Shown here one piece after another: positions 16,420-45,845 of a DNA stretch of 64,000 nucleotides. Position 1 is the stretch's first letter. Each line of letters opens with the position of its first letter. Below the pieces are notes generated by a model that saw only the letters and a list, made by a program, of their open reading frames with translations, was not told the DNA's origin and ran no database searches. This stretch comes from Pseudomonadota bacterium (GTDB taxonomy: Bacteria > Bdellovibrionota > Bdellovibrionia > Bdellovibrionales > SG-bin7). The stretch covers positions 64,001-128,000 of the forward strand of contig JAWXAY010000029.1 in the NCBI GenBank assembly GCA_034439715.1, read 5' to 3'. Made by a program: the position numbers and the translations under genes.

Positions 16420-16568
16420 GCCTTAGGTCTAGCAATTCTAAAACGCGAAGCGTCTAGTTGCGGAAGTTACTCACGATAAATTTTAAAGTTTTTTTTAGAA
16501 AACGGCTCGAATAAAGCCTAAAGGTGTTTGAAGGGACCGAATAGTCCCCGAAATAATGCGGCGCATTT

Positions 16569-17396: not shown

Positions 17397-17512
17397 GTCA
17401 GAGCTCCCCTGTTTTGTGCCGCACTTAGAGCCGCCTTATTGGCGACCCAAAGTGAGGCAGCGAAAGATCAAGAAAACCCACAATCCGATAACCCTTTCAA
17501 CAGTCACCAAAC

Positions 17513-27666: not shown

Positions 27667-27763
27667 GACAGACCCCCTCTTTCCTTGGTCTATCACCTTC
27701 CTGGTAATTTCTTGTCCAATCCTTGGTAACAATTTCTCGGTTGTCCCTACCTGAGACTTTATC

Positions 27764-29554
27764 TCAAAATCTAAAACTGGCCGTAGGCCCGAAGTTTAAT
27801 TTTCGATAGTTCCTAACCGGAATTTGAACACGCAGTGTTTTACCATTTCTTTCGATCTCAAGGTCTACTCTGGCGCTTTGGCCTAACTGAGCCACCCGTT
27901 GACCTAAATCCCAAGCTGAAAGGATGACCCTTCCGTTCAGCGTTTTAATCACATCCCCAACCTTTAGCCCCAGGTGGGAGATTTGCTGGCGACTTAGTCC
28001 GCTATCAAAATCGATTACTTTCGGACTTCCACCAGCATCAAAAACATGTAGGCCCAGGTCGGGGGAGTTAGACACCGAAAAGTTAAGACCCCTCATCCTC
28101 AACATTTCTCCCATATCTAATTCTTTAGTGGACAACAAATTCTTGACAAAAAAATCTTTTACTTCTCGGCCCATGACCTCATAAATTGTGGAAAAAATTA
28201 TTTCTAACGAAATTTCACGATTATTAATTCCATGCCGATTCCAAAGCAAACTTAAGACGTCCTTAAAGGTCTTTTTTGACCCTAGTTCTAGGGCCATGCC
28301 ATCCATTGCCATCGCCAACAAAGTCGTCTTGCGATAAATGATATCTTCTTTTTGTACTTTCCGTAACGAACTCGAAGTGTCTTCCCACAGACTTTTACTC
28401 GCATCTAGAATTGATACTGATCTCACTGCATCTTGGTTCCAATAGGATTTTTCAATCAAAAATCGAAAAACTTTATTGACGGAACTTTCAGATAACACGC
28501 CGGAATCCAATAGGCTCTTATAGGCCATATAATCGGTGGTACCCTCATAGAACCAAGCCATATTATCTTCGCCCCCATCGAACTCCCAATCAAAACTGTG
28601 AAAAAATTCATGTGCAGCCACATAGAGTGCACGCTCCAAAAATTCTTCTTTGCTTAAATTTCGCATTACCAAAGAATAAGTAGAGTCATGTAAACTCTCA
28701 CCGCCACCTGACCAGCCGGTTATTTCAATTTCTTCGGGGTAAGTATCCACCACCATACTTAAATGTTTGCGATTGTGAGCGCCCATTGACTTTAGCTGCC
28801 AGCTTATAGGAGCTTCCATCGCCTTGAAAAAATCATTGAAGCCCATCTCCCAATCGCCACCTCTAAGCACCTCAAGTCTCACGCCCGAAATCATTGCTTC
28901 TTTTCTTTCCCAATTTCCGACTGCGTAAACGTTGTTATTAATTGCTTCTTTTCTTTCACTAGCTTCAATTTCCTCGCCAATACCACAGATGTTATCTTCT
29001 ACTTGTACTGAGGGGCAAAAAACCTTCCAGCCCTCGGGTAATTCAAAGCGAATCTGAATATTTTCAAAATCACTAGGCAATTGAGCAATCTGAACAAACG
29101 TTTGCATACCTTTTATCGCCGCATGATCTTTTTGAATAATATTAAAAGCAGAGCTTAATTTCCAATATTCCTTGTAGTCGGGAGGACTAACTACGTATTT
29201 TATTTCGAGGGTGCCGGGCTCGATCTCGAGAGCTTCGTATGTCACGCTGGGAACTTTACCTGAAGCGGCAAAAAGATTTACCTTCCGCGACTTGCCGTTG
29301 GTTTTGACATCTACCTGAGAAATTAATTTTGAAAGATCTTCAGCTGTCCCAAAATTAGTGGGCATCATAAATTTGATTTTTGAGTCTCGCCATCCTTCGA
29401 TCACGATCCTGACGTTCACGCGCCTTTCTGGAAAAGCTGAAACACCAACGACATACTCAATGTTGAAAGCCTGACTGGCCAAAGAAAAAACCAAGGAAAA
29501 GCCCAAAGAAAAGAATGATGGTAGGCTTGCGGTAATTTTCAAAAAATCCTCCAT
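27764..29554 (-). CDS. M61 family glycyl aminopeptidase-like metallopeptidase with PDZ domain
   Basis: AHEFFH, WFYEGTTDY, GLKVGDVIKTLNG. Confidence 0.85.
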   Translation of the reverse strand: MEDFLKITASLPSFFSLGFSLVFSLASQAFNIEYVVGVSAFPERRVNVRIVIEGWRDSKIKFMMPTNFGTAEDLSKLISQVDVKTNGKSRKVNLFAASGKVPSVTYEALEIEPGTLEIKYVVSPPDYKEYWKLSSAFNIIQKDHAAIKGMQTFVQIAQLPSDFENIQIRFELPEGWKVFCPSVQVEDNICGIGEEIEASERKEAINNNVYAVGNWERKEAMISGVRLEVLRGGDWEMGFNDFFKAMEAPISWQLKSMGAHNRKHLSMVVDTYPEEIEITGWSGGGESLHDSTYSLVMRNLSKEEFLERALYVAAHEFFHSFDWEFDGGEDNMAWFYEGTTDYMAYKSLLDSGVLSESSVNKVFRFLIEKSYWNQDAVRSVSILDASKSLWEDTSSSLRKVQKEDIIYRKTTLLAMAMDGMALELGSKKTFKDVLSLLWNRHGINNREISLEIIFSTIYEVMGREVKDFFVKNLLSTKELDMGEMLRMRGLNFSVSNSPDLGLHVFDAGGSPKVIDFDSGLSRQQISHLGLKVGDVIKTLNGRVILSAWDLGQRVAQLGQSARVDLEIERNGKTLRVQIPVRNYRKLNFGPTASFRF

Positions 29555-29868
29555 TCCCTAACTTAACAGAATTAACGCGCCACTCCAATAAATTGGGAGG
29601 GCCGAATTTTTCGTGTATAATTTTCAAACTAAGAGATGCGTTCTGACACCATGTTTTTGTCATTTGCTAACTAGTTGCCACTAAAGGTTAAAATCGGTAC
29701 TGATAATTTTTTTTTATTCACTGCATCAAGTATGCTAATTATATATATATTTCAATTTTTAGAGAGAATTAATAGGCATCCTAGAGGTTCGGCACGAATA
29801 TTCCATAGTACTTCAGCGAGAACCAAAAAAGGGACATTAAGTTACCATTAAAATTTAGAGGGGGGAAA

Positions 29869-30360
29869 ATGAGATATTTATTAGTTTTATGCTTTTTAGT
29901 CGCTGGAGTTTTCGGTCAAGCCGAAGACATTGCCATAAGCTTGGATTCATTGAGGCCTGCCGAAGAGATCGATTTAGAGCTTGAAGCAATTGATGAAGAA
30001 AATTTAGAAGAAAACTCAGAAGAGGATTCAGAAGTAGGTTTATCGATAAGCACCTTTGATCGACGACGTCCACCGCCACCACCACGTCGGTATCCACGGC
30101 CTACTCCGTATCCACGACCTATCCCATATCCGCGGCCTACGCCTTATCCACGGCCTATGCCCTATCCGCAACCTGCACCTTACCCACGTCCCGTGCCTTA
30201 TCCGCGACCCAGCGCCACTGTTGTTTGTCATGCGACCGACGATTACGGGCGAATCTACACGGCAACGGCATATTATGCGAGCGATGCTCAAAGGTATGCA
30301 ATGAATGAGTGCCTAAGCCACTCTTACTATTGTTATGAGAGAGGCTGTAACTACTACTAA
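29869..30360 (+). CDS. Secreted Pro/Arg-rich repeat protein with acidic N-region and Cys-containing C-domain
   Basis: Signal peptide; GAGGGGGG SD; (YPRPxP)n. Confidence 0.8.
   Translation: MRYLLVLCFLVAGVFGQAEDIAISLDSLRPAEEIDLELEAIDEENLEENSEEDSEVGLSISTFDRRRPPPPPRRYPRPTPYPRPIPYPRPTPYPRPMPYPQPAPYPRPVPYPRPSATVVCHATDDYGRIYTATAYYASDAQRYAMNECLSHSYYCYERGCNYY
30091..30210 (+). repeat. 18-bp coding tandem repeat, 6 full units plus a partial (YPRPxP)
   Basis: TATCCACGGCCTACTCCG-like units at 30091, 30109, 30127, 30145, 30163, 30181, 30199. Confidence 0.9.
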
Positions 30361-30403
30361 GTCGGTGCAGCTAGTGCGGAATGTAAATAATGTAAGTATA
30401 GAG

Positions 30404-30431
30404 GGCGAGTGTTAACCACTCGCCTTTTTTT
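30404..30431 (+). terminator. Intrinsic terminator
   Basis: GGCGAGTG-TTAAC-CACTCGCC followed by T7. Confidence 0.85.
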
Positions 30432-30440
30432 ATTAAGGGA

Positions 30441-30962
30441 CTATAAGCTTGCAACAGGTAATCGTACTGCGACACCTGTGTCCATGGCTTTACTTTTAAT
30501 TGCCTGAGGCGGCGTTTGAACCACTCGTTGTTGAAGCGCCGCAAATATTGGTTCACGAATCGCCAAACTATTATCTTGTAAAACACACTGGCGGCCGAAT
30601 CGCTTTTTACTATTAATAATGACAGGTGCTTTAAGATTGGCGGTCATTTGTCTGGGATCATTGGGAATAGTGATTATACAAAACGTGTGAAATTTTTCGC
30701 CAGCAACCATTTGTAATGCATCATAGTCTCGACGATTAAACTGTATATTATATTTAGCAGCTAAAAATAGTTCGGGTTCTAAAACAGGAAATGCAATTGC
30801 AGGTGATTCACAACTCTGTAGCCAAGCAAAAATCTCATCGGTGGGATCGTCTAATAAAACAAATTTGCGTAAAGAGGCAAAACCAAGAATTCCTTCAGAA
30901 AACTCAATTATGTCTTCTGAATTAAGCTCTACTGTTCCAAACCGTGAAGTTTGAATCTGCAT
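30441..30962 (-). CDS. fliW: Flagellar assembly factor FliW
   Basis: TSRFG, FSEGILGF, WLQS, TANLKAPVIIN. Confidence 0.95.
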   Translation of the reverse strand: MQIQTSRFGTVELNSEDIIEFSEGILGFASLRKFVLLDDPTDEIFAWLQSCESPAIAFPVLEPELFLAAKYNIQFNRRDYDALQMVAGEKFHTFCIITIPNDPRQMTANLKAPVIINSKKRFGRQCVLQDNSLAIREPIFAALQQRVVQTPPQAIKSKAMDTGVAVRLPVASL

Positions 30963-31106
30963 TTATTCTCTCCCTCTAAAGCCAATTTAAAGTCCCACTA
31001 ACTATTGACACGCTTAATCTTTAGATCAGTTAGTCCAACATCTGTCTTTAAGCTTGAACTCAGGGCTTAGGTCAGGTCAACGATATTTTGAAATTTAGAT
31101 TTAAGA

Positions 31107-31343
31107 TCAGTTAGATTCTTTTTTGAGCAACTGATTTACAGCCCGCGTCCTGTCGGATGGCGCGTTAACAGACTCTTGGTTTTGAGCCTGAATTGCTACA
31201 TACACTTCTTCACGATGGATCTTCGTGTCTTTTGGGGCCTCTATGCCTAGGCGGACTTGCTTACCTTTGATCTGTACCACTCGGATTTTAATATGGTCAT
31301 CGATGGCAATGCTTTCACCGAGTTTTCTTGTAAGGACCAGCAT
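31107..31343 (-). CDS. csrA: Carbon storage regulator CsrA
   Basis: [30 protein letters not shown]-terminal extension with N at the FliW-type position (QNQES). Confidence 0.97.
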
Positions 31344-31400
31344 AGCATCTCCTTCGCTTCTGGTTTAGACACACGTCTCAAATATTAAATGCTTAACCAC

Positions 31401-31428
31401 TTAACGGACATCTTGTAAAAGAGCTTTA
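31401..31428 (-). promoter_or_regulatory. Sigma28-like promoter of csrA
   Basis: TAAA-N16-TCCGTTAA. Confidence 0.5.
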
Positions 31429-31438
31429 GCTATTATTT

Positions 31439-32521
31439 CTACCTAAGAAAGTCAAGTAGACTTGGCTGCATCATCTTGTTGGAAGTCGCAAGTGTGGCCT
31501 TTAGTGTGGTTTCGTTCTTATTTACATCTGAGACTGATTTAAAGGCATCTTCATCTTCCAGTTGAGAAATTGACGATTTTGTTTCAACTTTCACTTTGCC
31601 TAAAGATTCTGTCGCAGAATTTAAGTTCATTAGCCTAGACCCTAGCTCTGATCTAATTAGCGTGACTTGATTGTGAGCATCGTCAATTTCATCCAGTGTG
31701 ATTTGTAGTGAGAGTTTATCATCGGCTTCAAGCGATAATTCAATTTTTCGTAAGAGTCCAAATAAATTAATTCCCTGTTTGTTGGGGTTGGGTCCCGGCC
31801 CACCACGTGGAGAAGAGGCGGCGAATTTAATGTCCTCTTCAACACTCGCAGGCCCCCGTTGATTGGCACCACTCCCAGTGGACTCGTGACTTTGTGGGAC
31901 TTCGGACTCTAATGTTGTTCCTGGCTTTGTGCCAGGGCGAGGTTCGGGTTGGGGCTGTACTAAGCTGCCAATGTCTTTTCCTAAAAATATTCGGCTGCCA
32001 GGCATGTTAACGGCCACAAAGGCTTCTCGGTCAATAGGGACACGCACTTCTCCGTCGTCACCCTTATAATTTCCTTTGTAATCAAAGGGGGCCTCCACCG
32101 TGCCAAAGCCACCAAAAATAAATTTTCCCGCAAGCTTTCTATTTCCCACTTGAACAATCTGCTCATAGAGCTGCTTAACTTCGCGTGCAAGCGTGCGCCG
32201 CGTGTCTGTGTTGGTGCTAGCATCGTTGACTGCGCCTAAAACCAATTCTTTCACTCGCAAAAAAACGTCTCCCAGTTCACCCAGCGATTGCTCTGAGAAT
32301 TCCAGATAAGATTTAGCGTGAGTAAGCACTTTTCCAAACTGAGTGTTATTCTGATCTTCTGTTTTATAAGATAAAACTCGAGCAGCCGACATCGGGTCAT
32401 CCGAAGGTTTATTAACCCTTTTTTGCGATGAGGCTTTAGCCAAAGCATCATTAAGACCTGTACGACTCTTATGAAGTGAATCATTAATTTGGCCATAAAC
32501 CATTTTATCAGAAACGCGCAT
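31439..32521 (-). CDS. flgL: Hook-filament junction protein FlgL
   Basis: KRVNKPSDDP, FIFGG, SLLDFLR. Confidence 0.93.
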   Translation of the reverse strand: MRVSDKMVYGQINDSLHKSRTGLNDALAKASSQKRVNKPSDDPMSAARVLSYKTEDQNNTQFGKVLTHAKSYLEFSEQSLGELGDVFLRVKELVLGAVNDASTNTDTRRTLAREVKQLYEQIVQVGNRKLAGKFIFGGFGTVEAPFDYKGNYKGDDGEVRVPIDREAFVAVNMPGSRIFLGKDIGSLVQPQPEPRPGTKPGTTLESEVPQSHESTGSGANQRGPASVEEDIKFAASSPRGGPGPNPNKQGINLFGLLRKIELSLEADDKLSLQITLDEIDDAHNQVTLIRSELGSRLMNLNSATESLGKVKVETKSSISQLEDEDAFKSVSDVNKNETTLKATLATSNKMMQPSLLDFLR

Positions 32522-32534
32522 TTCCTAAATCCTC

Positions 32535-33959
32535 TTATCTCTTCATTGCCAGTATCGTGTCAAACATCTCATCAGCTGTCTGAATTAATTTCGCCGAAGC
32601 ATCAAATGTTTTTTGAAACTCAATCATCTTTGTCGCTTCTTCGTCGAGACTGACTCCACTGACACTGTCGCGAATGTTTTCTAATTGAGCGTGAATGTTC
32701 TTCTGTGATTCCGCGCTACGATTAGCTTTTTCAGTGGCAATTCCCACTTTTCCCACAATAGAATTATAAAACTCATCATAAGTGGTAGTCCCCTGCTCCA
32801 TGACTCTCTGTTGTTGCAGTTCACCGATCATATTGGCAATTCGATTATCTCCGGGAGCATTCGGCATTATTCCAGCTACAATACGTCCCGGATCTTTAGC
32901 TACGGCAGCATCGAGACCCATATTTTGGGCCGCTTCTATTTTATTTTGTAGCGGTGCAAATAAAGCGCCCCCAGGATTGCTAAAGGCATCAAACCCTTGG
33001 CGATGGATGCCATTCACTCCATTGATAAAACTAAAAGCCAACTCGTCGACATCGTCGAGGAGACTATTAATCGCAACATCTCGAACTTCAAATATTCCAC
33101 CCAAGCTTCCATTTTTTATTTCTTTAGTGATGTTCATGGGATCTGCACCAACTGCTGGCTGAATAAAAATCGCATTTCTTATGCCTTCTCGGCCATTTTT
33201 ATTTTCAACTCGCCCAGAGGTGATTTCGTTAGAAGAGTTTCCAGATACTATAATTCCGGAATTTCCGACAGTGACAGAAATCATTCCGTTGCCAGCTTCG
33301 GTAACTCTCACGTTAGCCATTTCGCTCATCTTTTTTATTAACAGATCTCGGCGATCTCTTTGATCATTCGCCGGTGCTCCAGAAATTTCAATCGCCGCAA
33401 TTTTTTCGTTTAGCTGAGCTATTTCTTTTCCGAAGGCATTGATTTGCCCAACTTGCTGAGTCACTTGTTGATCCAGCTCACCTTGAATTGCCCTAAGGCT
33501 AGCCACCGCTTTAGCAAAATCTTTTGTCACAAATTTTGCGGTATCGCGAACCAGCGTTCGTGTGGCCGTACTTTCTGGATTCGTAGCCAGCTCTCTAAAG
33601 GAGTTAAAAAATTCTCCGATGGATTGGTTAAGGCCTTTATTCATCTGTTCGTTATAGATTTGCTCTACACGAGTCATAGCGTCAGATTTCGCCTGTTCAA
33701 ATCCCAGCTGAGTGCCTTCAAATCTTAATTGTTTTTCTAAGAATATATCATTGATTCGAGTCACAGAACTAGTTTTGGCTCCCATGCCAACTTGGTATCG
33801 GCCTTCGCTTATAGGAATATTTGTCTGAGTCTCTATGCGCTGCCGAGAGAACCCTTCCGTGGATTTATTAGCAATGTTGTGACCGACTGTTTGCAGCGCG
33901 GTTTGACTGTTCATCATGGCCCGCTTGCCCACATCCATCATCGAATTTATTTTGGCCAA
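32535..33959 (-). CDS. flgK: Hook-associated protein FlgK
   Basis: GHNIANKSTEGFSRQR, SVSGVSLDEEA. Confidence 0.95.
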   Translation of the reverse strand: MAKINSMMDVGKRAMMNSQTALQTVGHNIANKSTEGFSRQRIETQTNIPISEGRYQVGMGAKTSSVTRINDIFLEKQLRFEGTQLGFEQAKSDAMTRVEQIYNEQMNKGLNQSIGEFFNSFRELATNPESTATRTLVRDTAKFVTKDFAKAVASLRAIQGELDQQVTQQVGQINAFGKEIAQLNEKIAAIEISGAPANDQRDRRDLLIKKMSEMANVRVTEAGNGMISVTVGNSGIIVSGNSSNEITSGRVENKNGREGIRNAIFIQPAVGADPMNITKEIKNGSLGGIFEVRDVAINSLLDDVDELAFSFINGVNGIHRQGFDAFSNPGGALFAPLQNKIEAAQNMGLDAAVAKDPGRIVAGIMPNAPGDNRIANMIGELQQQRVMEQGTTTYDEFYNSIVGKVGIATEKANRSAESQKNIHAQLENIRDSVSGVSLDEEATKMIEFQKTFDASAKLIQTADEMFDTILAMKR

Positions 33960-33962
33960 GTC

Positions 33963-34493
33963 TTAAGCCTCGCAACTAACAATCTTGCCTGCCACCCCTG
34001 TTTTCGAGAGATTTCCTTTTTTCTCGTAAACAGGTTTTCCAGCCAAAGAATCGCGAATCGCGCCAATGGCACCAGAAACATTCTTCAAAGCAGCATGAGC
34101 AAGCTGTTCGTTTTCTTTGTTTATCTCATTAAGTCTCTTTATTAAAAGATCTAAAACGGAATGTTGATTTCTTAAATGATTGCCTTCAGATGTCGACAAG
34201 CGCGACGCGATATCTAAAAGTCTGGGTTGTTCGTGGTCGGCCCCCACGGCCATCGCTAAGTCTTTAGCCACCTTCATTCGAGCATTTTCAAAAGTTCTAA
34301 GTTTTAAAAGAATGATCTCCTTGGCCTTGTTGTTTTCAGCCAATTTTTCAATATCCGCTTTAATTAATAGGTCTTTTTCGTTACGAATATTATCGAGGAG
34401 CATTCTATAAACTTTTATGAGATGCCCCATGCCGTCGGTCAATAAGGTGCAAAGACGTTTTTGATTCGGAGATAGTGTTTCCATTTTTCTCAT
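33963..34493 (-). CDS. flgN: Flagellar export chaperone FlgN
   Basis: Position flgM-flgN-flgK; helical FlgN pattern; alternative start 34484. Confidence 0.8.
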   Translation of the reverse strand: MRKMETLSPNQKRLCTLLTDGMGHLIKVYRMLLDNIRNEKDLLIKADIEKLAENNKAKEIILLKLRTFENARMKVAKDLAMAVGADHEQPRLLDIASRLSTSEGNHLRNQHSVLDLLIKRLNEINKENEQLAHAALKNVSGAIGAIRDSLAGKPVYEKKGNLSKTGVAGKIVSCEA

Positions 34494-34517
34494 CCTTGAA
34501 AATGGTTATTAACTGTA

Positions 34518-34850
34518 TTAGTCGCTAAACAAATGCTCAGACAGAATTTTATCTGCAAGTTCTTTTGAATCTATCGAATATTTACCGTCATCTATTAATT
34601 TTTGAAAATGAGCGACCTTGGCCTCATCAACGGCATTCATATTTGGTGTTGCCAACTCTTTTACTTTTAAAGTGTCTTGAGCTCGCTTAGAAATATCCAC
34701 GCGGGCATAGTCCCCACCCACATTATCGGTGGCCGCAGCGCCCTTGCCGTCTTTCTTATTTATGTTTATGCCCGAAGGTCCGACCTTACCTGATTTAGCC
34801 GAATCTTGAGACCCTAAAGAATCTCTAATTTTTGAGTTGTCCACTTTCAT
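34518..34850 (-). CDS. flgM: Anti-sigma28 factor FlgM
   Basis: VDISKRA, EAKVAHFQKLIDDGKYSIDSKELADKIL; GGAGGA SD before ATG 34850. Confidence 0.9.
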   Translation of the reverse strand: MKVDNSKIRDSLGSQDSAKSGKVGPSGININKKDGKGAAATDNVGGDYARVDISKRAQDTLKVKELATPNMNAVDEAKVAHFQKLIDDGKYSIDSKELADKILSEHLFSD

Positions 34851-34962
34851 ACGTTCCTCCCCCAAAAAACTTTAGAACCATTTAGTCATACCCTAAGGCC
34901 CAAAAGTTTCCAAGTTATCCTTACCTATTGTATCATACTGAGACAGAAAAAAGTTTAGGTTT

Positions 34963-35637
34963 TTAGCTGACCGGACTATAATTAATACTCCAGATCAGCG
35001 GTTTTTCAGCTGAAAAGCGACCAATTCTGTCACCGGGGGCCACTTTGGTGTCTGGCGGCAAACTGGAGACTGCTCCATTAAATGCTAGTGTCGATTGGGT
35101 TCCATTGTCGTGATCTAATTTTACAATACTAAGGCCCTCTGGACTTTGGAATGAAGACTGAACTTTTCCGGACCAGGGACTCAATATCTCCAAAGTTTTT
35201 TTGTCGAGCTCCTTATTGATGTAAAATGAGAACTGATCAACTTTGCCATCACCATTTTTTTTAATCTTTATATTTTGTTTTAAATCTTCTGGCAAAGGTC
35301 CCCGCGGTCTATCTAGTGGTTTTATATTCTTCATACCAAATTGGTTGCCATATCTTTCTTTAATTTGATTATAGATAAGATCTGATAAACCTACGCCACC
35401 CTTTCCGACCCACTGATCTACATACTCATCATCTAATTGGTTGCGAAAAATTTTTTCGCCCATTGAGGCCGGCATGAGCTCACTTTCACTGACAGTTTTT
35501 CTCATGGCACGCACCATTTCACGTAAAAATTGTGATTCATAAAGTTGGGCCGCTTTTAGCAACTTGGGATCTCGGGTGTCTTGCTGAGGCTGAGGCTGGG
35601 TTTTTGCTATTGAAGAAATGTCTCCCATCAGAGACAC
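34963..35637 (-). CDS. flgJ: FlgJ rod-binding domain plus degenerate M23-like domain
   Basis: LLKAAQLYESQFLREMVRAMRKTV...LDDEY..GLSDLIYNQI. Confidence 0.8.
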   Translation of the reverse strand: MSLMGDISSIAKTQPQPQQDTRDPKLLKAAQLYESQFLREMVRAMRKTVSESELMPASMGEKIFRNQLDDEYVDQWVGKGGVGLSDLIYNQIKERYGNQFGMKNIKPLDRPRGPLPEDLKQNIKIKKNGDGKVDQFSFYINKELDKKTLEILSPWSGKVQSSFQSPEGLSIVKLDHDNGTQSTLAFNGAVSSLPPDTKVAPGDRIGRFSAEKPLIWSINYSPVS

Positions 35638-35641
35638 CCAG

Positions 35642-35835
35642 AAAAAAGAGGGGGAGTATGAGCTAGAGTTGTACGTGCATCCTGCACTTCACTCTTTAAT
35701 ACCGGTCTACTGCCAATACTTGGCTGGCGCTGAACCGTTGACTTTGTTTCCTGCGAGAAACTTTTGTCACCTAACCATCCTTGGTCACCAATCCCTAACC
35801 CATCATCCCCCGGATCCCAACACGTCCATGTGTCG
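35642..35835 (-). ncRNA. Candidate CsrA-binding structured RNA (CsrB/RsmZ-like sRNA or flgJ leader)
   Basis: Seven GGA motifs, three in short hairpin loops; 3' imperfect stem plus U tract. Confidence 0.45.
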
Positions 35836-35896
35836 GAAAAAATAACCGTTGATATCTTTATTTTAATATTTTTTTGCTTCAATGCGAAACAAATTT

Positions 35897-36901
35897 TCAT
35901 AAAATCTCTAAATCTCCCTGTAAAGCCCCGACCGCCTTGATGTTCTGAAGTATCGTGATCAGGTCTTTGGGAGAGACCCCTAGACCATTGAGCGACTTGA
36001 CAAGGCCTCCGACATTCGCATCGGGAGGAATGACCCCGACCCGTTCGGCATCTTGATCTTTCCCCTTTGCGACTTTTGCTCCACCAACTCTAACGCTTAA
36101 ATCTCCATGGCTTATGGCTACCTCACTAATTCTCACTCCTGATCCGATGACAACCGTTCCCGTTCTTTGATTAACCACAACCTTAGCTTTGACATCAGGA
36201 ACGACTTCAAGAGATTCAATCGTTGCTAACATCTCCACAACTTTTCCTTCAAATCTTTGGGGGACAATAACGTCAACCGTACCTGAATCTTTGGCGACTG
36301 CATATTTACCAGATAGATCACTATTAATGACTTTCACCATTCTTGCCGCCGTAGTAAAATCGGGGTTGTTAAGTGTCAGTCTAAACATTTTTCTTGAAGT
36401 AAAATCAGATGAGACGTCGCGTTCAATGATGGCGCCATTAGGAATTCTACCAACCGTATTGTGAGTGGCCCCACCACCTTCGCCGATTAAAACGGCTCCT
36501 TGCGCTACAGCATAAATTTCCTGATTAGCCGCTCTTAAGGGAGACTGGATGAGCGTGCCACCCTTTAAACTTGAGGAGTCGCCAACGGAGTTAACTGTAA
36601 TGTCAATATTGTTCCCCGCCCTCGCAAAGGAAGGGAGATTAGCTGTGATAATTACAGCAGCGACATTGGCGCTAGCGACTTCTTTGCCCGAAAGCTTCAT
36701 TCCCATTTTATCTAGCATTCGTGTGAAACTTTTTTCAGTAAACTCTGACTTCGAGTCACCTGTACCCGCAAGACCTACCACTAATCCATAGCCAACCAGT
36801 TGGTTTTCACGAACACCGCGAACATTGGCTATGTCTTTGAGGCGTACAGCCTGAGCTAAATCACACGAGATCATCAACAGTAAAAAATATATTTTTCTCA
36901 T
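35897..36901 (-). CDS. flgI: Flagellar P-ring protein
   Basis: RLKDIANVRGVRENQLVGYGLVVGLAGTGD, SLKGGTL, GALQGDL. Confidence 0.97.
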   Translation of the reverse strand: MRKIYFLLLMISCDLAQAVRLKDIANVRGVRENQLVGYGLVVGLAGTGDSKSEFTEKSFTRMLDKMGMKLSGKEVASANVAAVIITANLPSFARAGNNIDITVNSVGDSSSLKGGTLIQSPLRAANQEIYAVAQGAVLIGEGGGATHNTVGRIPNGAIIERDVSSDFTSRKMFRLTLNNPDFTTAARMVKVINSDLSGKYAVAKDSGTVDVIVPQRFEGKVVEMLATIESLEVVPDVKAKVVVNQRTGTVVIGSGVRISEVAISHGDLSVRVGGAKVAKGKDQDAERVGVIPPDANVGGLVKSLNGLGVSPKDLITILQNIKAVGALQGDLEIL

Positions 36902-36903
36902 AA

Positions 36904-37710
36904 TTATAGGCCTCGCTTTACACTAACGACGTCAAAATTGGGCTCTAGAATAGCCTGAGAGCTCAGCCCGTCGTCATTAAAATCCTGTTCGCGCACAATT
37001 CCGGTTACAACGACGCGGTACTCTCGCTTGCCCAACATAAACGACTGGGTACCTTTTATTCGATAATTGCCATCAGGAAGTCTTTGGATAATTCTTGTCG
37101 GAACTAGTTCTAGGCCAAGATTGTTCTCATCCTTGTTGTTGTCGTCCTCATTTTTTGCAGTTGAGTTGTCTTTACCAGTATCTTTTTTATCCTTTGAATC
37201 TTTGGCGTCGGCCGTCTTATCTTTAGAGTCTTTGCTGTCTTTAGCATCTTTCTCCTTTTCTTTATCGTCGGCCTTACCGTCTTCGTCAGAGGCCAGTTTT
37301 CGCTGTGGAGCATCTATTTTTTTCAATAGCTTTTTAATAACAGTTACTTTGGAGTCCACTTGAGTGCGCCCCGAACCTTCAAGCTTTACATTTAAAAGGT
37401 CACCCACCAGACGAACTATGTTTTGCGAAAATAAATATGAACTTTGCCCTTCCATGATCCACAGCGAGCCTTCATTGGCTCCCACTCTAGCTTCACGTTC
37501 AAACTGATCCTTAGTCATTCTCGAATATTTACGTTGCTCACCTTTTTTGTAGTTGGGGTTATCGGCATAAGAAAATGGCTTTTGCGGACTCGCGTCTTCA
37601 ACAAAACCGTTGCCTCTCATTAAATTTTTAAGTTTCATGCCAAATCCCGCGCAGGCAGAGACCTGTAGAGAAATAATAATCAATATAAAAAGCTTTAAAC
37701 TTTTATTCAT
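36904..37710 (-). CDS. flgH: Flagellar L-ring lipoprotein
   Basis: VSAC lipobox, GSLW, VGDLLNV, LPDGNYRIKG, TGIVR. Confidence 0.85.
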   Translation of the reverse strand: MNKSLKLFILIIISLQVSACAGFGMKLKNLMRGNGFVEDASPQKPFSYADNPNYKKGEQRKYSRMTKDQFEREARVGANEGSLWIMEGQSSYLFSQNIVRLVGDLLNVKLEGSGRTQVDSKVTVIKKLLKKIDAPQRKLASDEDGKADDKEKEKDAKDSKDSKDKTADAKDSKDKKDTGKDNSTAKNEDDNNKDENNLGLELVPTRIIQRLPDGNYRIKGTQSFMLGKREYRVVVTGIVREQDFNDDGLSSQAILEPNFDVVSVKRGL

Positions 37711-38669
37711 TGGACTTTTACGACTCCTGGCTCCTTGACCACTGCAAAAATAATTGTTTGCGTGGTTGGGTTAATCACACGTATTGTATCGCCGACTTCG
37801 CCTTGCTCTTGGGCAACTCCCCGGAGCGTAATATCGTAGTAATCTGTTTCGTTAACTATTTTTACGGCTTGCCCTTGTTTAATTGCTATTTCTTTAACTA
37901 GGTCCCGCCGCCAAATAATGTCATTCACTCTTAAACCCCGGCTGACTTTTTTGCCAATCAGAGAATTAAAATCGGTGACACCATCGTCAGCAAATGTAAC
38001 TTCTCTTTTTTGATTTTGGTAATCACCAACTTGAAGTCTTTCACCAATATTAAGTGCTCGAGATGCGACTGGCACATTTCTTAATACTTGAATTTTTCCG
38101 CTAACCCAATAAATTTTGGGCAACCCTTGAAGTGAGGCAATTTTTAGCGGCAAAGAAAAACTTCCTCGAGGGAGCGTCTGGCCAATATGCTCGAGTGACC
38201 ATTTAGCATCCGCTTCGACATCGGCAATCCATGGGATTTGAATTCCTGAAATTTGAAATTCACAATCCTGGCAAATCTGGGAGTATTTTTGGACGATAGT
38301 GGCCTTAAGGTCTTCTTCGTCAAAGGCATATTTTGAGCGGTAAACATCTACGAGGCTCGGAACGATTAGTGAAATCTTTTGGCTCCACTTTTTTTCGAGA
38401 GCTGCTACTTGCTTTCGAATCATTCGGGTTAAAACAGAACCTTTTAATTTGATGGTTTGGCCCACACCGGGCGCGGGTCCCAGATCAATTTTTTGAAGTT
38501 CTTGAGCCTTTTCGGCATCGATATTTTTTAGTGTTACTCCGTTACCTAAATAAATTCGTGACTGGCTCTTAACGTTAATTCTTTTATTAACCGAAATTTC
38601 TGGCGCGTCATTAGCAAGCCCAATAACTCCCAAAAAAATAAAAAATAAGAACGTTAAAGCTCTAATCAC
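37707..38669 (-). CDS. flgA: P-ring assembly chaperone FlgA
   Basis: VPVASRAL..GE, IKQGQAV, GEVGDTIRVINP. Confidence 0.9.
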   Translation of the reverse strand: MIRALTFLFFIFLGVIGLANDAPEISVNKRINVKSQSRIYLGNGVTLKNIDAEKAQELQKIDLGPAPGVGQTIKLKGSVLTRMIRKQVAALEKKWSQKISLIVPSLVDVYRSKYAFDEEDLKATIVQKYSQICQDCEFQISGIQIPWIADVEADAKWSLEHIGQTLPRGSFSLPLKIASLQGLPKIYWVSGKIQVLRNVPVASRALNIGERLQVGDYQNQKREVTFADDGVTDFNSLIGKKVSRGLRVNDIIWRRDLVKEIAIKQGQAVKIVNETDYYDITLRGVAQEQGEVGDTIRVINPTTQTIIFAVVKEPGVVKVQ

Positions 38670-38672
38670 CTG

Positions 38673-39458
38673 TCACCTCAGCGAATTTATACTTTGAAGC
38701 ATTTGATCTGCGGCCTGTACAACTTTAGAATTTGTTTCGTACGCTCTCTGGGCCGAAATCATATTCACCATTTCATCAACAATGTTTACGTTGCTATTTT
38801 CAAGTTGGCCCTGCGAAATGTCGCCTACCCCATTCTCGCCAGGAATAGACTGTTGCGGCAGACCACTAGAGTTAGAGGGCATAAAGAGATTTCTGCCCAT
38901 AGCTCTTAGGCCCGCAGGATTGACAAAATTAACTATTTGGATTTGTCCGAGATTTTGTGGAGCTACGTTTTGGTCTAGGTAAGCCTCTACTATTCCCTTG
39001 TTGTTTACCGTAAGGGTTTTGGTGTTCACAGGAATGACTATTTCTGGCTGTAGAACATAGCCATTTTTATCGACAATGCGGCCCGACGAGTCTTTTTTAA
39101 AGGATCCATCACGTGTATAGGCGATTTGTCCGTTATCAGTTTCCACTGGAAAAAAACCATTACCATCGATTTGTAAATCGAGAGGATTATTAGTCAAGCG
39201 CGGCGTGCCACTTGTAAAATCCTTTTGAATAGAACTGGTTCGCACACCAAGGCCGGTCTGAATACCGGTAGGTGAAATCGTGTTGGCCCCTGTCGCAGAG
39301 CCTGGCTCCTTAATCGTTTGGTACATGAGGTCTTCGAATTCAGCGCGATGTTTTTTAAATCCTGTCGTACCGATGTTTGCCATATTGTGGGCAATGACAT
39401 CCATATTATCTTGCTGGGCGTTCATACCCGTGGCTGAAGTATTTAGCGCTTTAAGCAT
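38673..39458 (-). CDS. flgG: Distal rod protein FlgG
   Basis: IAHNMANIGTTGFKK, FEDLMYQ, LENSNVNIVDEMVNMI. Confidence 0.96.
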   Translation of the reverse strand: MLKALNTSATGMNAQQDNMDVIAHNMANIGTTGFKKHRAEFEDLMYQTIKEPGSATGANTISPTGIQTGLGVRTSSIQKDFTSGTPRLTNNPLDLQIDGNGFFPVETDNGQIAYTRDGSFKKDSSGRIVDKNGYVLQPEIVIPVNTKTLTVNNKGIVEAYLDQNVAPQNLGQIQIVNFVNPAGLRAMGRNLFMPSNSSGLPQQSIPGENGVGDISQGQLENSNVNIVDEMVNMISAQRAYETNSKVVQAADQMLQSINSLR

Positions 39459-39479
39459 TCATCCTCCCCAAAAACATAA

Positions 39480-40292
39480 CTAACCTCTGCTAACTCTCGG
39501 AACGTCATTGGTGAGCTTTTCATCTATTTGATCATAGGCCTTGATTGCCCTTTGATTAGATTCAAAAACCCTTGTCGCCCCAATCATGTCTGTCATTTCT
39601 TGTACAATATTTACGTTGCTGGCCTCCAAAAATCCCTGATGAATTTTAGTTTCATTGGCGGGGGTCATGTTGACGTTATAATTTGGTCGCAGATTGTATA
39701 AAGTCATACCCTCTTTTGCCAATGCGTCTTTTTGGTCAACATTAATAACTGAGAGTTTGCCGAGGCTATCGCTGCCATCGAAAACTTCGCCATTGTAAGC
39801 CACAGTTACATTGGAGCCTTTTAGGTTAATTATTCTTTGTGCCGGATCTCCCGCACCTGCTTTTAACACCGGAAAGCCTGATGACGAAATGAGATTGCCC
39901 TGATTATCAATTTTAAAATTTCCCGATCTCGTAAAACGAGGTCCACCGGGAGTTAAGACTTCAAAAAAACCATCACCCTCAATCGCGACATCTAACTTAT
40001 TGCCGGTAGACATTAACGAACCTTGCGAGAAGTCTGACGACACTGAATTGGCATCAACGTAGCCGCGATCGACTCCTTGCATATCATAGAAACTTTCGAT
40101 GGACGCGGGCACTCGAGGGATTTGCATGACATCTGGTTGTTTTTCTAACGCCGTTAAATACTCTTTAAATTGAATGTTGTCTTTTTTAAATCCGGCCGTA
40201 TTGGCGTTCGCAATATTATTGGCAATTGTGTCTAGCCTTTGGTTTTGGGCAATAGCTCCGCTCAACGCTGCATAGATGCCTTTTGAACTCAT
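39480..40292 (-). CDS. flgF: Proximal rod protein FlgF
   Basis: IANNIANANTAGFK, TGNKLDVAIEGDGFF, LEASNVN; precedes flgG. Confidence 0.9.
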   Translation of the reverse strand: MSSKGIYAALSGAIAQNQRLDTIANNIANANTAGFKKDNIQFKEYLTALEKQPDVMQIPRVPASIESFYDMQGVDRGYVDANSVSSDFSQGSLMSTGNKLDVAIEGDGFFEVLTPGGPRFTRSGNFKIDNQGNLISSSGFPVLKAGAGDPAQRIINLKGSNVTVAYNGEVFDGSDSLGKLSVINVDQKDALAKEGMTLYNLRPNYNVNMTPANETKIHQGFLEASNVNIVQEMTDMIGATRVFESNQRAIKAYDQIDEKLTNDVPRVSRG

Positions 40293-40315
40293 GCTTCCAC
40301 CTCAACAAGATATGG

Positions 40316-40332
40316 AGCAATGCACATGCCAA
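40316..40332 (-). promoter_or_regulatory. Sigma54 promoter of the flgF operon
   Basis: TTGGCATGTGCATTGCT = GG-N10-GC. Confidence 0.8.
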
Positions 40333-40466
40333 TTTAATTTACAGGACCTAGGTGGGTGTTTGATATGTTTTTAGTCTGTTTCAGTGGTTATAGACGCCAA
40401 AATCCTGACGGTCTGTCAAAAAAACTTGTCTCGACCGCGACCCACTTTTAACTGATAATTAAACCT

Positions 40467-41411
40467 ATGTTAAACAAAGTATTTCTTTTGGGAATGCTTC
40501 TTTTCTCTCAGGTTGTGTCTATGACAACCTATGCAAGTCCGCCAGCGGAACTTAAAACTATCGACACATTAAGTGTGCCAAAACTTGTATTAGCTCGGCC
40601 CGACGAGGGCTCGGTCGTTTTTGATCTTCCCATTACGTACAACACACGCGTCCAACATTGGATCCACTATTTTCAAAAAAACGGAAAACCTTATTTCAAA
40701 AAGTGGATCGAACGCTCCTATAAGTATATTCCAGCTATTCAGCGGGTTCTAAAAGAACGGGGACTTCCTAATGATTTGGCCTATGTCGCCATGATTGAAA
40801 GTGGTTTTTCGTCACAAGCGGTAAGCTCTGCAGCCGCCGTAGGGCCCTGGCAATTTATCAAAGGAACAGCTGAAAGATTTGGGCTCCAAATAAATTGGTG
40901 GATTGATGAACGCAAGGATTTTCATAAAAGCACCGTGGCTGCCGCCAACTATATATCTTCTCTTTATAAGATGTTTAGCTCTTGGTATTTGGTCGCCGCC
41001 GCCTACAATATGGGAGAAAACAGAGTTAAAAGAATTGTAGCAAAACACCAAACAACGAATTTTTGGATTTTATCAAAGCAAGGCGCTTTGTCGCAGGAAA
41101 CCAAAAATTACGTACCCAAATTAATTGCGGCAATGCTCATCTCTAAAGCTCCTGCCCTTTATGGTTTCCGTGAGCTGAAAGCACAAGAGCCTGTGCCCTA
41201 TGATCATATTTTTGTACCTGGCGGCACAGACCTCGCGGGACTTGCGACTCACTTGGGAGTTAACTACGAATACATAAAAGAAATGAATCCAGAATTACTT
41301 CATGGCTTCGTTCCCAAATTTATACAAAGTCACAAAATAAAGATTCCCAAGGGATCGACCAAAATGGTATCTCATTATTTGGAAACAAGGCTTTCAGGAA
41401 AGACTCTATAA
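40467..41411 (+). CDS. MltD-like lytic transglycosylase (SLT domain)
   Basis: MIESGF, AVGPWQFI, AAAYNMGE, ETKNYVPK. Confidence 0.92.
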   Translation: MLNKVFLLGMLLFSQVVSMTTYASPPAELKTIDTLSVPKLVLARPDEGSVVFDLPITYNTRVQHWIHYFQKNGKPYFKKWIERSYKYIPAIQRVLKERGLPNDLAYVAMIESGFSSQAVSSAAAVGPWQFIKGTAERFGLQINWWIDERKDFHKSTVAAANYISSLYKMFSSWYLVAAAYNMGENRVKRIVAKHQTTNFWILSKQGALSQETKNYVPKLIAAMLISKAPALYGFRELKAQEPVPYDHIFVPGGTDLAGLATHLGVNYEYIKEMNPELLHGFVPKFIQSHKIKIPKGSTKMVSHYLETRLSGKTL

Positions 41412-41412
41412 A

Positions 41413-42600
41413 ATGTCTCTCATTGTCCAAAAATATGGTGGAAGCAGTCTTAAGACTGCCCGAGAAGTTCACTCGGTCGCTGATAGAATTCAAAGTCTCC
41501 ATAGTCATGGCCTGTCTATTGTGGTGGTGGTTAGCGCCATGGGTAACACCACTAACGAATTAATTGATCTCGCCTTTCAAGTGAGCCCACGCCCCCTCCA
41601 ACGTGAACTAGACATGTTGCTCACTACTGGCGAACGGGTATCTATGTCACTTTTGAGCATGGCACTTAATGATCGAAGTGTTCCTGCAATTAGTTTTACC
41701 GGCAGTCAAGCGGGCGTTATCACCAACGAATCTCATAATAACGCCCAGATAGTAGAAATAAAACCACTTCGTGTAAAACAGGCTCTCGAACAAAAAAAAG
41801 TGGTGGTCCTAGCAGGCTTTCAAGGAGTAACTCAAGAGTCAAAAGAAGTTACTACCCTTGGTCGCGGAGGATCAGATACAACAGCCGTGGCAATGGCAGC
41901 GCACTTTTCAGCCGATCGATGTGAAATCTTAAAGGATGTGGACGGCGTTTATTCCGCCGATCCAAAAATCGTCAAAACTGCAAGACTTATTCCGATGATG
42001 AGCTATCAACATTTAAGCGAGATGACTTTTTGGGGGTCTAAAGTTTTACATCACCGCGCTGCAGATTTAGCTCTGCAGCTGAAAGTCCCACTTTACGTGG
42101 GACCAACTCACACTAAGGGAACGGGAACGTTAATTAAGGGAGAGGCCACAATGTATGAAAATTCAAATATTTCATCAATCAACAGTCATACCTTTGTCAG
42201 ACTAATTAGAGTAAAAAACAGCAATTTAGATCAAGCGCTTATTGCTTTTACTCAGATACTAGCAAACAAAAACTTTTCGCTTCCGCAAATTATTGATGCC
42301 CGATTTGAAAATTCCGACACGTTGCTGCTTATTACGGGTCCTAAAGAAAATATTTTACCGCTTATGGAAACGCTATTGGGCCAAACCACTCTAGAAATTG
42401 TTTCGAACCACCTTTCTTCAGTCACAGTTACTGGCTTAGGTTTTAGCGCCACTCCTTCGATTCAACGGCTCACTCATTGGCTCACTCTAAAAGGCGTGGC
42501 ATTGCACTCTATAATTTCTAGCCCAATGAGTTGCACCTTTGTGATTAATGAGAATGATCGTGAGAATGCTATTAAAATTTTACATGAATTTATGCAGTGA
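41413..42600 (+). CDS. lysC: Aspartate kinase
   Basis: VQKYGGSS, VVSAMG, TTLGRGGSDTTA, DVDGVYSADP. Confidence 0.95.
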   Translation: MSLIVQKYGGSSLKTAREVHSVADRIQSLHSHGLSIVVVVSAMGNTTNELIDLAFQVSPRPLQRELDMLLTTGERVSMSLLSMALNDRSVPAISFTGSQAGVITNESHNNAQIVEIKPLRVKQALEQKKVVVLAGFQGVTQESKEVTTLGRGGSDTTAVAMAAHFSADRCEILKDVDGVYSADPKIVKTARLIPMMSYQHLSEMTFWGSKVLHHRAADLALQLKVPLYVGPTHTKGTGTLIKGEATMYENSNISSINSHTFVRLIRVKNSNLDQALIAFTQILANKNFSLPQIIDARFENSDTLLLITGPKENILPLMETLLGQTTLEIVSNHLSSVTVTGLGFSATPSIQRLTHWLTLKGVALHSIISSPMSCTFVINENDRENAIKILHEFMQ

Positions 42601-42609
42601 CAATCAACG

Positions 42610-43593
42610 ATGACAAACAAAGAACTGAGTCACTTTTATAAGAATTTTTATGAACTCGTTGAGTCAGGCATTCCTATCAACGGAATTTTGGAAACCTTAA
42701 GAACCACTTCCAAAGGTGATCATTTAAAAAGACAATATGGTCACGCACTGAAACTCGTAGACTCAGGTAAAACTCTCACCGAGTCTCTGCAATCCGCTGA
42801 ACTTATTTCTCCATTTGATGTTGAAATTATTCGTGCGGCCGAATCTTCGGGTAGTTTGTCTCGCGTCTTAACGGCATTGTCTTTTAGGTATGAAGTGCGA
42901 AGTGCAGCCGAACAAGAGCTTCGCTCGGGACTGTGGCGCCCCTTCTTTTTATTTGTGGCCGCGTTGTTTGTACCTAGCTTGCCCGGCTTGATGAGTGGCA
43001 AAACCACTTTGGCGCAGTATTGCATTAGTTCTTTCGGCTTATTATCACTTGTTCTATTTTTGGTTTATTTGATTTTTAAATTTAATAACTTGGCTAATCA
43101 GAACTATGAATTGGCTCTGCTTCGTTTTCAGATTTTTTCTAAAGTGCCTTTTATTAGCGGGCTTATAAAAAAAATGGCACTTGAAAATTTTTGCTCTTCC
43201 TTGGCCTTTATGCTAGACGCCGGCATTGATATGTTTCGCGCGCTCAAATGGGCAGGTAATTCGTCGGCCGACAAGTCCATTAAAAGATCTGCGCAAATGA
43301 TACTTATGCAAATAAAAGAGGGCCGCGACCTGGCGGTCAGCTTTCGTGCCCAACCCGCATTTACTGATGAAATCAAAAATGCGATTTTTGTCGGGAATCA
43401 AAGTGGTAAGATTCCAACGATGCTCCATCGAGCATCTCAGGACCTAAACCGTGACGTGACTTCACGTGTCCAAGCAATTGCTAAGTTTGTTCCTTTAATT
43501 ATTTATGCAGTGATCGCCTTTTTTGTGGCGAAACAAATTATTGATTTTTATAGCGAACATCTTAAGGATATCGACAAAGCGTTGGGAGAATAA
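42610..43593 (+). CDS. Type II secretion F / PilC-family platform protein
   Basis: ESGIPI, AAESSGSL, LDAGID, GNQSGKI; duplicated T2SSF pattern. Confidence 0.85.
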   Translation: MTNKELSHFYKNFYELVESGIPINGILETLRTTSKGDHLKRQYGHALKLVDSGKTLTESLQSAELISPFDVEIIRAAESSGSLSRVLTALSFRYEVRSAAEQELRSGLWRPFFLFVAALFVPSLPGLMSGKTTLAQYCISSFGLLSLVLFLVYLIFKFNNLANQNYELALLRFQIFSKVPFISGLIKKMALENFCSSLAFMLDAGIDMFRALKWAGNSSADKSIKRSAQMILMQIKEGRDLAVSFRAQPAFTDEIKNAIFVGNQSGKIPTMLHRASQDLNRDVTSRVQAIAKFVPLIIYAVIAFFVAKQIIDFYSEHLKDIDKALGE

Positions 43594-43594
43594 T

Positions 43595-43621
43595 TGCGGC
43601 CTCCGTGAATCGGAAGCCGCA
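43595..43621. terminator. Hairpin between convergent pilC-like and recA genes
   Basis: TGCGGC(C)TCCG-TGAAT-CGGA(A)GCCGCA. Confidence 0.6.
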
Positions 43622-43626
43622 TTACT

Positions 43627-44772
43627 TCAGTGGCTCTTCTTTTTCAGAGCTTTTTTCTTTTCTTCGTCCAGAAGTTTTTCTTTTTCTTTATCCGCATCGG
43701 GATTGACTGTGGCCGCTTCAATAGAGGCGTCAGGAACGGGAGCCACTCTACCTATTCCGTGCTTTGTAAGCACTTGCGCCCGCAGAGATTTCAGAAGGTC
43801 AGTGTGTTCGTAGAGATACTGTTTTACAGCGTCGCGACCCTGGCCAAGTCTTTCTCCGTTGTAACTGTACCAAGCACCAGATTTTTCAACGATACCGTCA
43901 TTAGAGGCGATATCCAAAACATCTCCGGCCTGGCAAATTCCTGTGCCAAACATCAAATCAAATTCGATTTTAGCAAAAGGCGGCGCCATTTTATTTTTTA
44001 CCACTTTTACAGCTGTGCGGTTACCCACAATATCTTCACCGTTTTTAATGGCACCAATTCGGCGTACATCTAAACGCACTGAAGAATAAAACTTTAGAGC
44101 ATTACCGCCAGTGGTTGTTTCGGGGTTACCAAACATCACACCGATTTTCATTCGAATTTGGTTAATAAAAATCACAAGAGTGCGGCTGCGGTTTATCGAC
44201 GCCGTTAACTTTCGAAGGGCTTGTGACATCAAACGCGCCTGAAGACCCATGTGAGAGTCTCCCATTTCGCCTTCAATCTCAGCTCGAGGAACAAGAGCCG
44301 CTACCGAGTCTATTACTAAAACGTCTATAGCGCCTGAGCGCACAAGTGTTTCAGTAATTTCGAGAGCCTGCTCACCCGTATCGGGTTGCGAAACAAGAAG
44401 ATCTTTTGTGTTTACACCTAGCTTTGCAGCATATCCAATATCTAGGGCATGCTCAGCATCGATAAACGCCACCACGCCGCCAGCCTTCTGAGCTTCGGCA
44501 ATTACACTTAAAGACAGAGTTGTCTTACCAGAACTTTCAGGACCGTAAATTTCAACAATTCGACCCTTAGGAAGCCCACCGATGCCTAAAGCGATATCTA
44601 AACTTAATGACCCCGTGCTGATAGTGGGAACATCTTTATATAAACTCTCCCCACCCATGCGCATAATTGCGCCTTTACCAAATTGTTTTTCAATTGCGGT
44701 AACTGCTAAGCTGAGAGCTTGTTGCTTTTCAGTACTTCTCTCTGTTCCTTTTTCGGTCTGTACACTTGCCAT
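43627..44772 (-). CDS. recA: Recombinase A
   Basis: [25 protein letters not shown]. Confidence 0.99.
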
Positions 44773-44798
44773 GCTTTCTCCTTTTTATTGAGCTTCTA

Positions 44799-44821
44799 TT
44801 AGTTAGTTAGTTAGTTAGTTA
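44799..44821. repeat. (TTAG)5 tetranucleotide microsatellite upstream of recA
   Basis: TTAGTTAGTTAGTTAGTTAGTTA, including the cinA stop codon. Confidence 0.9.
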
Positions 44822-45768: not shown

Positions 45769-45845
45769 TGTAAACCCCTTATCATGTTTTTAACATGACC
45801 AAGGGCACTGTCAACGTGACAGCCCACAAAATTCATAGTTAAATT

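Follow-up and report, generated by a model that had tools for sequence, protein, structure and literature searches.

A conserved GGA-hairpin RNA between flgI and flgJ of Bdellovibrionales as a candidate CsrA sponge in FliW-encoding bacteria

What fills the 259-nt gap that separates the flgI stop (35897) from the flgJ start (35637) on the minus strand of a flagellar operon? The window, by which we mean the whole 64,000-nt stretch of DNA analysed here, carries the neighbours in the order flgI, flgJ-like, flgM, flgN, flgK, flgL-like, csrA and fliW. With 61-73% identity between its FlgI and Bdellovibrionales records, the genome most likely falls in that order. A first-pass annotation of the sequence had proposed that the gap encodes a GGA-rich RNA, either a sponge for the regulator CsrA or a CsrA-sensing attenuator. 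Pfam agreed with the gene identities it gave, and csrA and fliW, which it put about 4.5 kb downstream, lie 4.3-5.2 kb away. The genes on which the argument draws are as follows.

35897..36901, minus strand: flgI, the upstream neighbour (PF02119)
34963..35637, minus strand: flgJ-like rod-binding gene, the downstream neighbour (PF10135, ORF list)
34518..34865, minus strand: flgM (PF04316), with a promoter-like element of its own
31107..31343, minus strand: csrA (PF02599), 78 aa, FliW-type with a C-terminal extension and N55, the presumed partner of the RNA
30441..30962, minus strand: fliW (PF02623), protein antagonist of CsrA

The flgJ start codon is GTG and falls 4 nt past the U-tract of the small RNA described below. 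A 163-aa exported-looking protein with proline-rich PYPRP-type repeats and no Pfam match is encoded at 29869-30360 on the plus strand.

We first evaluated the spacer as a structured RNA. Its minus strand was more stable than all 200 of 200 shuffles (z = -3.55), and three hairpin-loop A(N)GGA sites per 200 nt place it in the genome's top class, reached by 7 of 64,784 half-overlapping segments; none had four. The seven minus-strand GGA motifs reported earlier were all found, with their G at 35827, 35817, 35808, 35794, 35780, 35751 and 35682 (the plus-strand TCC lies two bases lower than each of these coordinates), and the three hairpins named with them were present in both the minimum-energy and the centroid folds. 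The expected RNA of about 150-200 nt proved to be real as a structured element and larger than described, at ~210 nt. Its 5' end (35854) was inferred from the -10 box and from the mapped start of APsRNA1, a Bdellovibrio transcript considered below, and its 3' end was set at the U-tract. P1 comes first, the two arms of a long-range helix (P0) then enclose P2-P5, and the U-tract follows directly.

~35642..35854, minus strand: small RNA, ~210 nt, APsRNA1 ortholog (fold; match to covariance model R1 at 35643-35842, 166.7 bits)
35815..35838, minus strand: P1 hairpin, ANGGAN hexaloop with GGA at 35827; 6 of 7 pairs with two-sided changes
35795..35811, minus strand: P0 5' arm, one strand of the long-range closing helix (17 pairs, of which 9 show two-sided changes; 90.7% of cells paired)
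35772..35787, minus strand: P2 hairpin, GGA at 35780 (alignment, fold)
35746..35761, minus strand: P3, a weak AU-rich hairpin with the nearly invariant GCAGGAAA; GGA (35751) partly in the stem
35712..35724, minus strand: P4 hairpin, fifth conserved site; GGA in most relatives, GUA in the window genome
35675..35687, minus strand: P5 hairpin, AGGAU pentaloop with GGA at 35682; 99.3% of cells paired
35642..35666, minus strand: P0 3' arm and six-U tract (35647-35642), predicted terminator via the long-range helix

One part of the earlier fold did not stand: the local AAAGAG/CUCUUU stem gives way to the long-range helix, in which the partner of the C-rich 3' end is a G-rich 5' arm ~150 nt upstream. 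A scan for local-hairpin terminators found none at the RNA 3' end, where the U-tract follows the long-range helix.

The covariation check suggested for flgI-flgJ spacers supported this structure, since pairs changed on both sides in two sequence sets. The 54 flgI loci yielded 47 distinct sequences, after four were not extracted (L025 too short, L042 and L058 cut, L062 without the element) and three proved duplicates. Alignment A1 (MAFFT, mean identity 63%) comprises 37 of the 47 and leaves out the most divergent and some near-identical ones, a selection that flatters its conservation figures. In it, 90.7% of cells were paired and 22 of 40 pairs showed two-sided changes (0 of 500 shuffles as high; slid controls, 40-47%), these counts, like all covariation counts here, being raw and ignoring the relatedness of the sequences. 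The other set, of 34 distinct matches from metagenomes, gave 92.8% paired and again 22 of 40 pairs with two-sided changes; it was picked outside the training set and aligned by fitting to the model, and some members may be near-duplicates of training rows.

While the stems vary among homologs, the GGA loops are among the invariant columns of A1: GGA is invariant in P1, P3 and P5, nearly so in P2, and variable in P4, where RNA contigs of one metatranscriptome run (X2) carry the GGA-type base at 35718. P3 has few compensatory changes and is conserved in sequence rather than by covariation, and one pair of P5 has a two-sided change in 18 of 37 sequences. Conservation of the seven GGA motifs was partial, extending to four (35827, 35780, 35751 and 35682), with those at 35817, 35808 and 35794 lying in or beside stems. 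Per homolog we counted 4-8 A(N)GGA sites (median 6, with a median of 4 unpaired). Neither BLAST nor model R1, which gave a single match, found a paralog in the genome. A 6S RNA identity was rejected, as RF00013 did not match here and the genome's 6S RNA lies on contig C35.

The first reading had also held that no such RNA was described in this lineage. This is right for the connection to CsrA and wrong for the transcript, which was published in 2013 as APsRNA1. In Bdellovibrio bacteriovorus HD100, APsRNA1 spans 499,375-499,581 (207 nt), between the end of flgI (499,332) and the start of flgJ (499,642) and on the same strand (Karunker et al. 2013, PMC3627812). APsRNA1 and the window RNA agree in position, strand and size (207 vs ~210 nt), and its printed sequence, compared by eye with alignment A1 and the homolog L021, has equal motifs in equal order; as position, size and motifs agree, we consider the two orthologous. 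APsRNA1 reached RPKM values of 50,451 in attack and 3,181 in growth phase, a 16-fold drop in growth, with flgI at 15 and 9 and flgJ at 7.7 and 41.5 (PMC3627812). Both flanking genes lie far below the RNA, indicating that it is not simply a piece of the operon mRNA.

PMC3627812 lists no FliA-type promoter for APsRNA1 and reports no function and no homologs beyond B. bacteriovorus, and CsrA is absent from its main text. The family, its structure, the promoter conservation and the CsrA reading are beyond that paper. In the literature searched, which mostly excluded subscription papers, the name APsRNA1 occurred only in PMC3627812 and no paper tied it to CsrA. Another RNA of that study, merRNA, has ~15 GGA in 445 nt, several of them A(N)GGA, as counted by eye in its Fig. 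S1 (PMC3627812), and is a possible second CsrA ligand. Three metatranscriptomes of close relatives, from three studies, gave nine records over 34900-36400, all within 35650-35835, and the longest contigs were 97-99% identical to the window and ended at 35650-35652; these contigs are a weak hint, carrying no strand or level and coming from runs that were found using this stretch. Over 26000-45900, the same three runs yielded only short divergent recA pieces beyond the RNA; given how the runs were chosen, the parts left uncovered carry no weight.

The claim that no convincing dedicated promoter is visible was overturned by a -10 box at 35865-35860.

35860..35888, minus strand: sigma70-type promoter candidate, -35 at 35888-35883 and -10 at 35865-35860
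35875..35891, minus strand: imperfect 17-bp palindrome over the -35 box and spacer, candidate operator

Of the 47 distinct homologs, 40 keep this -10 box, which lies 9-37 nt upstream of their first hairpin (500 shuffles: mean 8.1, maximum 17). In the homolog L021, a comparison made by eye puts the end of the box 5 nt ahead of the counterpart of the published APsRNA1 start. The palindrome core occurs in 22 of 47 homologs, in all 22 at 9-10 nt before the -10 box, and may partly be a mere extended -10. Genome-wide it was not clearly enriched (17 matches vs 9-12 in three shuffles); 12 of 16 sites checked were intergenic, with the site count near chance. A second copy at 34929-34945 overlies the -10 region of the flgM promoter candidate, and was seen at no more than two mismatches in 33 of 54 loci (duplicates included, some loci being too short).

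We next examined how widely the RNA is distributed. Model R1 detected it in 48 of 51 flgI-bearing genomes of the order across two samples. It matched 32 of 33 such genomes in the first sample, where the miss was a contig ending inside flgI; all 30 loci of the first fetch carry the RNA, and the model search gave one match per genome. Two genomes (G159, G171) have flgI and csrA but lack both the spacer and a model match. All 33 genomes with a match in the first search have csrA, the reverse not being true, and all but two have fliW. Four genomes with neither csrA nor flgI gave no match better than E 0.54. An anchor-free pattern search of metagenomes returned at least 120 matches; among the 80 examined, 35 were model-positive and 45 were chance, and 34 of the 35 adjoin flgI or flgJ. 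Locus L243 was set aside because the contig end cuts the element and an unrelated ORF adjoins it. Weak model matches in G006, G042, G122 and G049 were discarded as lying in or against ORFs or being too weak, and so were four viral contigs matched by a two-motif pattern, all chance matches in coding DNA. In one genome (G014, contig C34, 54938-55399), the FliW family matched in two pieces within one 297-aa open frame, which suggests an insertion.

Outside the order we read 57 spacers, and a further three came from the order of the window. Families f22, f23, f26, f29, f31, f32 and f19 have long spacers that contain 2-5 GGA hairpins, and f15 has 1-3; f17, f21, f27 and f25 have none despite csrA, the spacer itself being absent from f17, f21 and f27. 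In family f20, 10 of 19 spacers had a pair of GGA hairpins, of which the second falls at the flgJ ribosome-binding site. The flgJ leaders of these f20 loci (L113, L120, L157, L165 and others) are short, combine a -10 box with both hairpins and do not align with one another; they suggest a candidate CsrA-repressed, cis-acting flgJ leader and a possible ancestral state. The long multi-GGA variants (L124, L128, L133-type; f22, f23, f26, f31, f32) have a G-rich run at the flgJ ribosome-binding site and a C-rich partner just downstream, and may act in cis. Two further loci, L021 and L049, have a long inverted or repeated insert between U-tract and flgJ, with a spacer of 600-700 nt.

The RNA also outlives the flagellar genes around it. 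Two genomes without flgI that keep csrA (G010, G021) have a 72-81-nt version consisting of the -10 box, two GGA hairpins, a closing stem and the U-tract, with P3 lost. It lies between flgM and an mltD-like gene 57% identical to the window's, implying the loss of flgF-flgI to one side of it and of flgJ to the other. The G021 form matches 12 of 12 positions of the CsrA SELEX consensus, and FliW was not found in G010, a single contig. Both keepers belong to one genus, so the retention counts as one event. Of the five csrA-positive, flgI-negative genomes of the order, the other three (G006, G019, G175) gave no credible copy, nor did five genomes of this type in other orders yield a convincing one. 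The csrA leader of flagellum-less G006 (L063, ~8010-8090) has several A(N)GGA motifs; judged from these motifs, it suggests possible autoregulation where the small RNA was not found. Three flgI-less genomes retain flgM (L063:8242-8454, L079:1774-2079, L080:1757-2101), which fits a non-flagellar role of sigma28 control.

Taken together, we think it probable, on comparative evidence, that the RNA is a stand-alone CsrA sponge operating beside FliW, which peaks in the opposite phase of the life cycle. The conserved loops, the promoter of its own, the abundant and discrete transcript of the ortholog and survival after flagellar gene loss support this branch of the original sponge-or-attenuator alternative well, if indirectly; the attenuator branch came out weaker. 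The small RNA is likely transcribed from its own promoter, and transcription is predicted to stop at the U-tract closed by the long-range helix. Its GGA hairpin loops would then sequester CsrA dimers, and CsrA repression would be relieved in the swimming attack phase, when FliW is low. With the RNA acting in attack phase and FliW in growth and exit, the two antagonists may divide the labour.

The published levels are consistent with such a division. The mRNA of Bd0543 peaks in growth phase (41 attack, 3,077 growth RPKM) and that of flagellin Bd0604 in attack phase (11,984 and 6), like APsRNA1, all of these being RNA rather than protein levels (PMC3627812); a proteome study gives Bd0543 the name FliW and has it raised by 2.11 log2 at exit phase (PMC12546842). 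A C-terminal extension and N55 are the criterion for FliW-type CsrA (PMC13407953); the window CsrA has N55, and its best PDB match is 5DMB_D over residues 2-74. High-affinity SELEX ligands of CsrA present a hexaloop closed by AC/GU (PMC7652899); P1 has the same hexaloop and closing pairs, and 42 of 47 homologs match 9-10 of 12 consensus positions. As a CsrA dimer is reported to bridge two sites, the two GGA hairpins of the mini form fit its two RNA-binding faces.

Several observations point the other way. P4 is degenerate in the window genome, 4-8 A(N)GGA sites compare with the 22 GGA reported for CsrB, and coupling to csrA is loose across genomes. CsrA might protect the RNA and in this way account for its attack-phase abundance, instead of being controlled by it. 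B. bacteriovorus CsrA represses a hag reporter and a mutant hag reporter too (PMC13443453), which implies that its specificity may not follow a simple GGA rule. As for other possible targets, two flagellin genes with FliA-like promoters (G000, contig C6, 32490-34300; L176, L177) have leaders that combine a GGA hairpin with a GGA-rich ribosome-binding site, and by these motifs are plausible CsrA targets. The window itself holds another four flagellin genes, at ~11300-17400.

The best surviving alternative, which we consider unlikely, makes the RNA the 5' leader of flgJ: whether the polymerase stops at the U-tract or continues into flgJ-flgM-flgN would depend on CsrA occupancy during transcription, and the small RNA would be what termination releases, possibly a sponge too. 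The fixed place before flgJ (34 of 35 model-positive metagenome matches beside flgI or flgJ), the enclosure of the CsrA sites by the terminator helix and the cis-acting ancestor suggested by the f20 leaders all favour it. The flgJ/RNA ratio also climbs from ~0.015% in attack phase to 1.3% in growth phase, the time of high FliW (PMC3627812), but the flgJ counts behind it are 18 and 29 reads, maybe from the upstream operon. An equilibrium model predicted the closing helix in 47 of 47 homologs with or without the GGA motifs held open, more than three pairs changing in only 3, and the one alternative helix examined (P0 5' arm with the P2 5' strand) was 74% paired, a level reached by 36 of 500 shuffles. 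In addition, the U-tract and flgJ lie anywhere between a few and several hundred nt apart, depending on the locus, the RNA persists where flgJ has been lost, and flgM has a promoter-like element of its own.

Elements of both readings can be combined in a Bdellovibrionales switch with two antagonists, an RNA sponge in attack phase and FliW inside prey. The sponge would have evolved independently, from a CsrA-controlled flgJ leader; the "loop" of its terminator would be a 150-nt CsrA-binding domain, and CsrA load may set flgJ read-through. We offer this wider scheme tentatively, as somewhat more likely to fail than to hold in full.

It is improbable that the RNA is instead a passive store or scaffold that holds, stabilises or localises CsrA for release on prey entry. 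The very high attack-phase level with its 16-fold drop in growth, a compact enclosed multiloop unlike CsrB, and published protection of CsrB from decay by CsrA agree with a store, yet this role is functionally close to a sponge and has no separate support.

Slightly less probable still is action without CsrA, through base-pairing with mRNAs, as Karunker et al. suggested for APsRNAs (PMC3627812), or through another protein, for example one recognising GCAGGAAA of P3. Conservation of P3 in sequence and loss of the RNA from some csrA-positive genomes are in keeping with this, but the conserved single-stranded parts are repeated GGA loops with no unique seed, and the minimal form retains exactly two GGA hairpins while dropping P3.

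That the gap is instead a 90-aa protein-coding gene coupled to flgI, with incidental RNA features, is very improbable. An ATG overlaps the flgI stop, and a 90-100-aa frame is open in 4 of 4 window-family members examined (119 and 185 aa in two other loci), but the ATGA overlap occurs in only 12 of 50 loci, 6 of those 12 giving 6-41 aa. In 29 of 36 comparisons the lengths differ by an amount not divisible by three, and members of the family change frame towards the C terminus. There is no Pfam match, and the compensatory changes track RNA pairing. Coding selection on this frame, raised earlier as a challenge to the RNA, is largely refuted.

Returning to the sponge reading, we compared the RNA with known CsrA antagonists. 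It resembles CsrB/CsrC and RsmX/RsmY/RsmZ of Gammaproteobacteria: like them it is small and abundant, displays several GGA motifs in short hairpin loops and is U-rich at its end. It likely acts like CsrB/RsmZ while standing outside those families. The Rfam check left the element without a family match: no Csr/Rsm family was found even at E up to 5-10, where only chance matches appeared. The regulators of the CsrB/Rsm systems were also sought. Profiles NF008318 and NF007018 (labelled PRK11107.1 and PRK09483.1), which we take to be BarA and UvrY, reached at best 310 of 890 and 64 of 280 bits in the 95.7% complete genome, below cut-off. A GacA-box-like pattern was absent at three mismatches within 1 kb upstream, and the genome had 13 matches vs 27.7 expected, none of them near the RNA. 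Unlike CsrB/Rsm, the window RNA is embedded in a flagellar operon, most of its sites sit in one multiloop closed by a long-range helix with no local terminator hairpin, and its host has FliW together with an N55, extended CsrA.

Among FliW hosts, the flaA mRNA of Campylobacter jejuni, part of its CsrA-FliW system (PMC4894983), and the hag leader of Bacillus subtilis are likewise described as flagellar GGA-hairpin RNAs that bind CsrA. Both are mRNA leaders repressed by CsrA, whereas the window RNA is non-coding and self-contained, and its ortholog is far more abundant than the flanking mRNAs. For Geobacter sulfurreducens, a FliW species, sRNAs that would regulate RsmA have been predicted computationally (Fakhry et al. 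2017, PMC5568370) and are likewise candidate CsrA binders; they are single-genome predictions, and that paper mentions neither Bdellovibrio nor FliW. According to a 2026 paper, no such sRNA has yet been characterised in G. sulfurreducens, and PMC3818213 concerns a different sRNA.

Reviews present sRNA mimicry and FliW as mutually exclusive forms of CsrA antagonism (PMC7366521) and leave their coexistence open. If the sponge reading is true, an RNA decoy and the protein antagonist FliW occur in one bacterium, and the RNA lets the question of coexistence be tested in Bdellovibrio, which is harmless, genetically tractable and has a CsrA that is active in a published reporter. Work cited in PMC13443453 implicates csrA in predation. 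The comparison suggests what an abundant RNA, an orphan since its publication in 2013, may do, and offers a post-transcriptional handle on the attack-to-growth switch.
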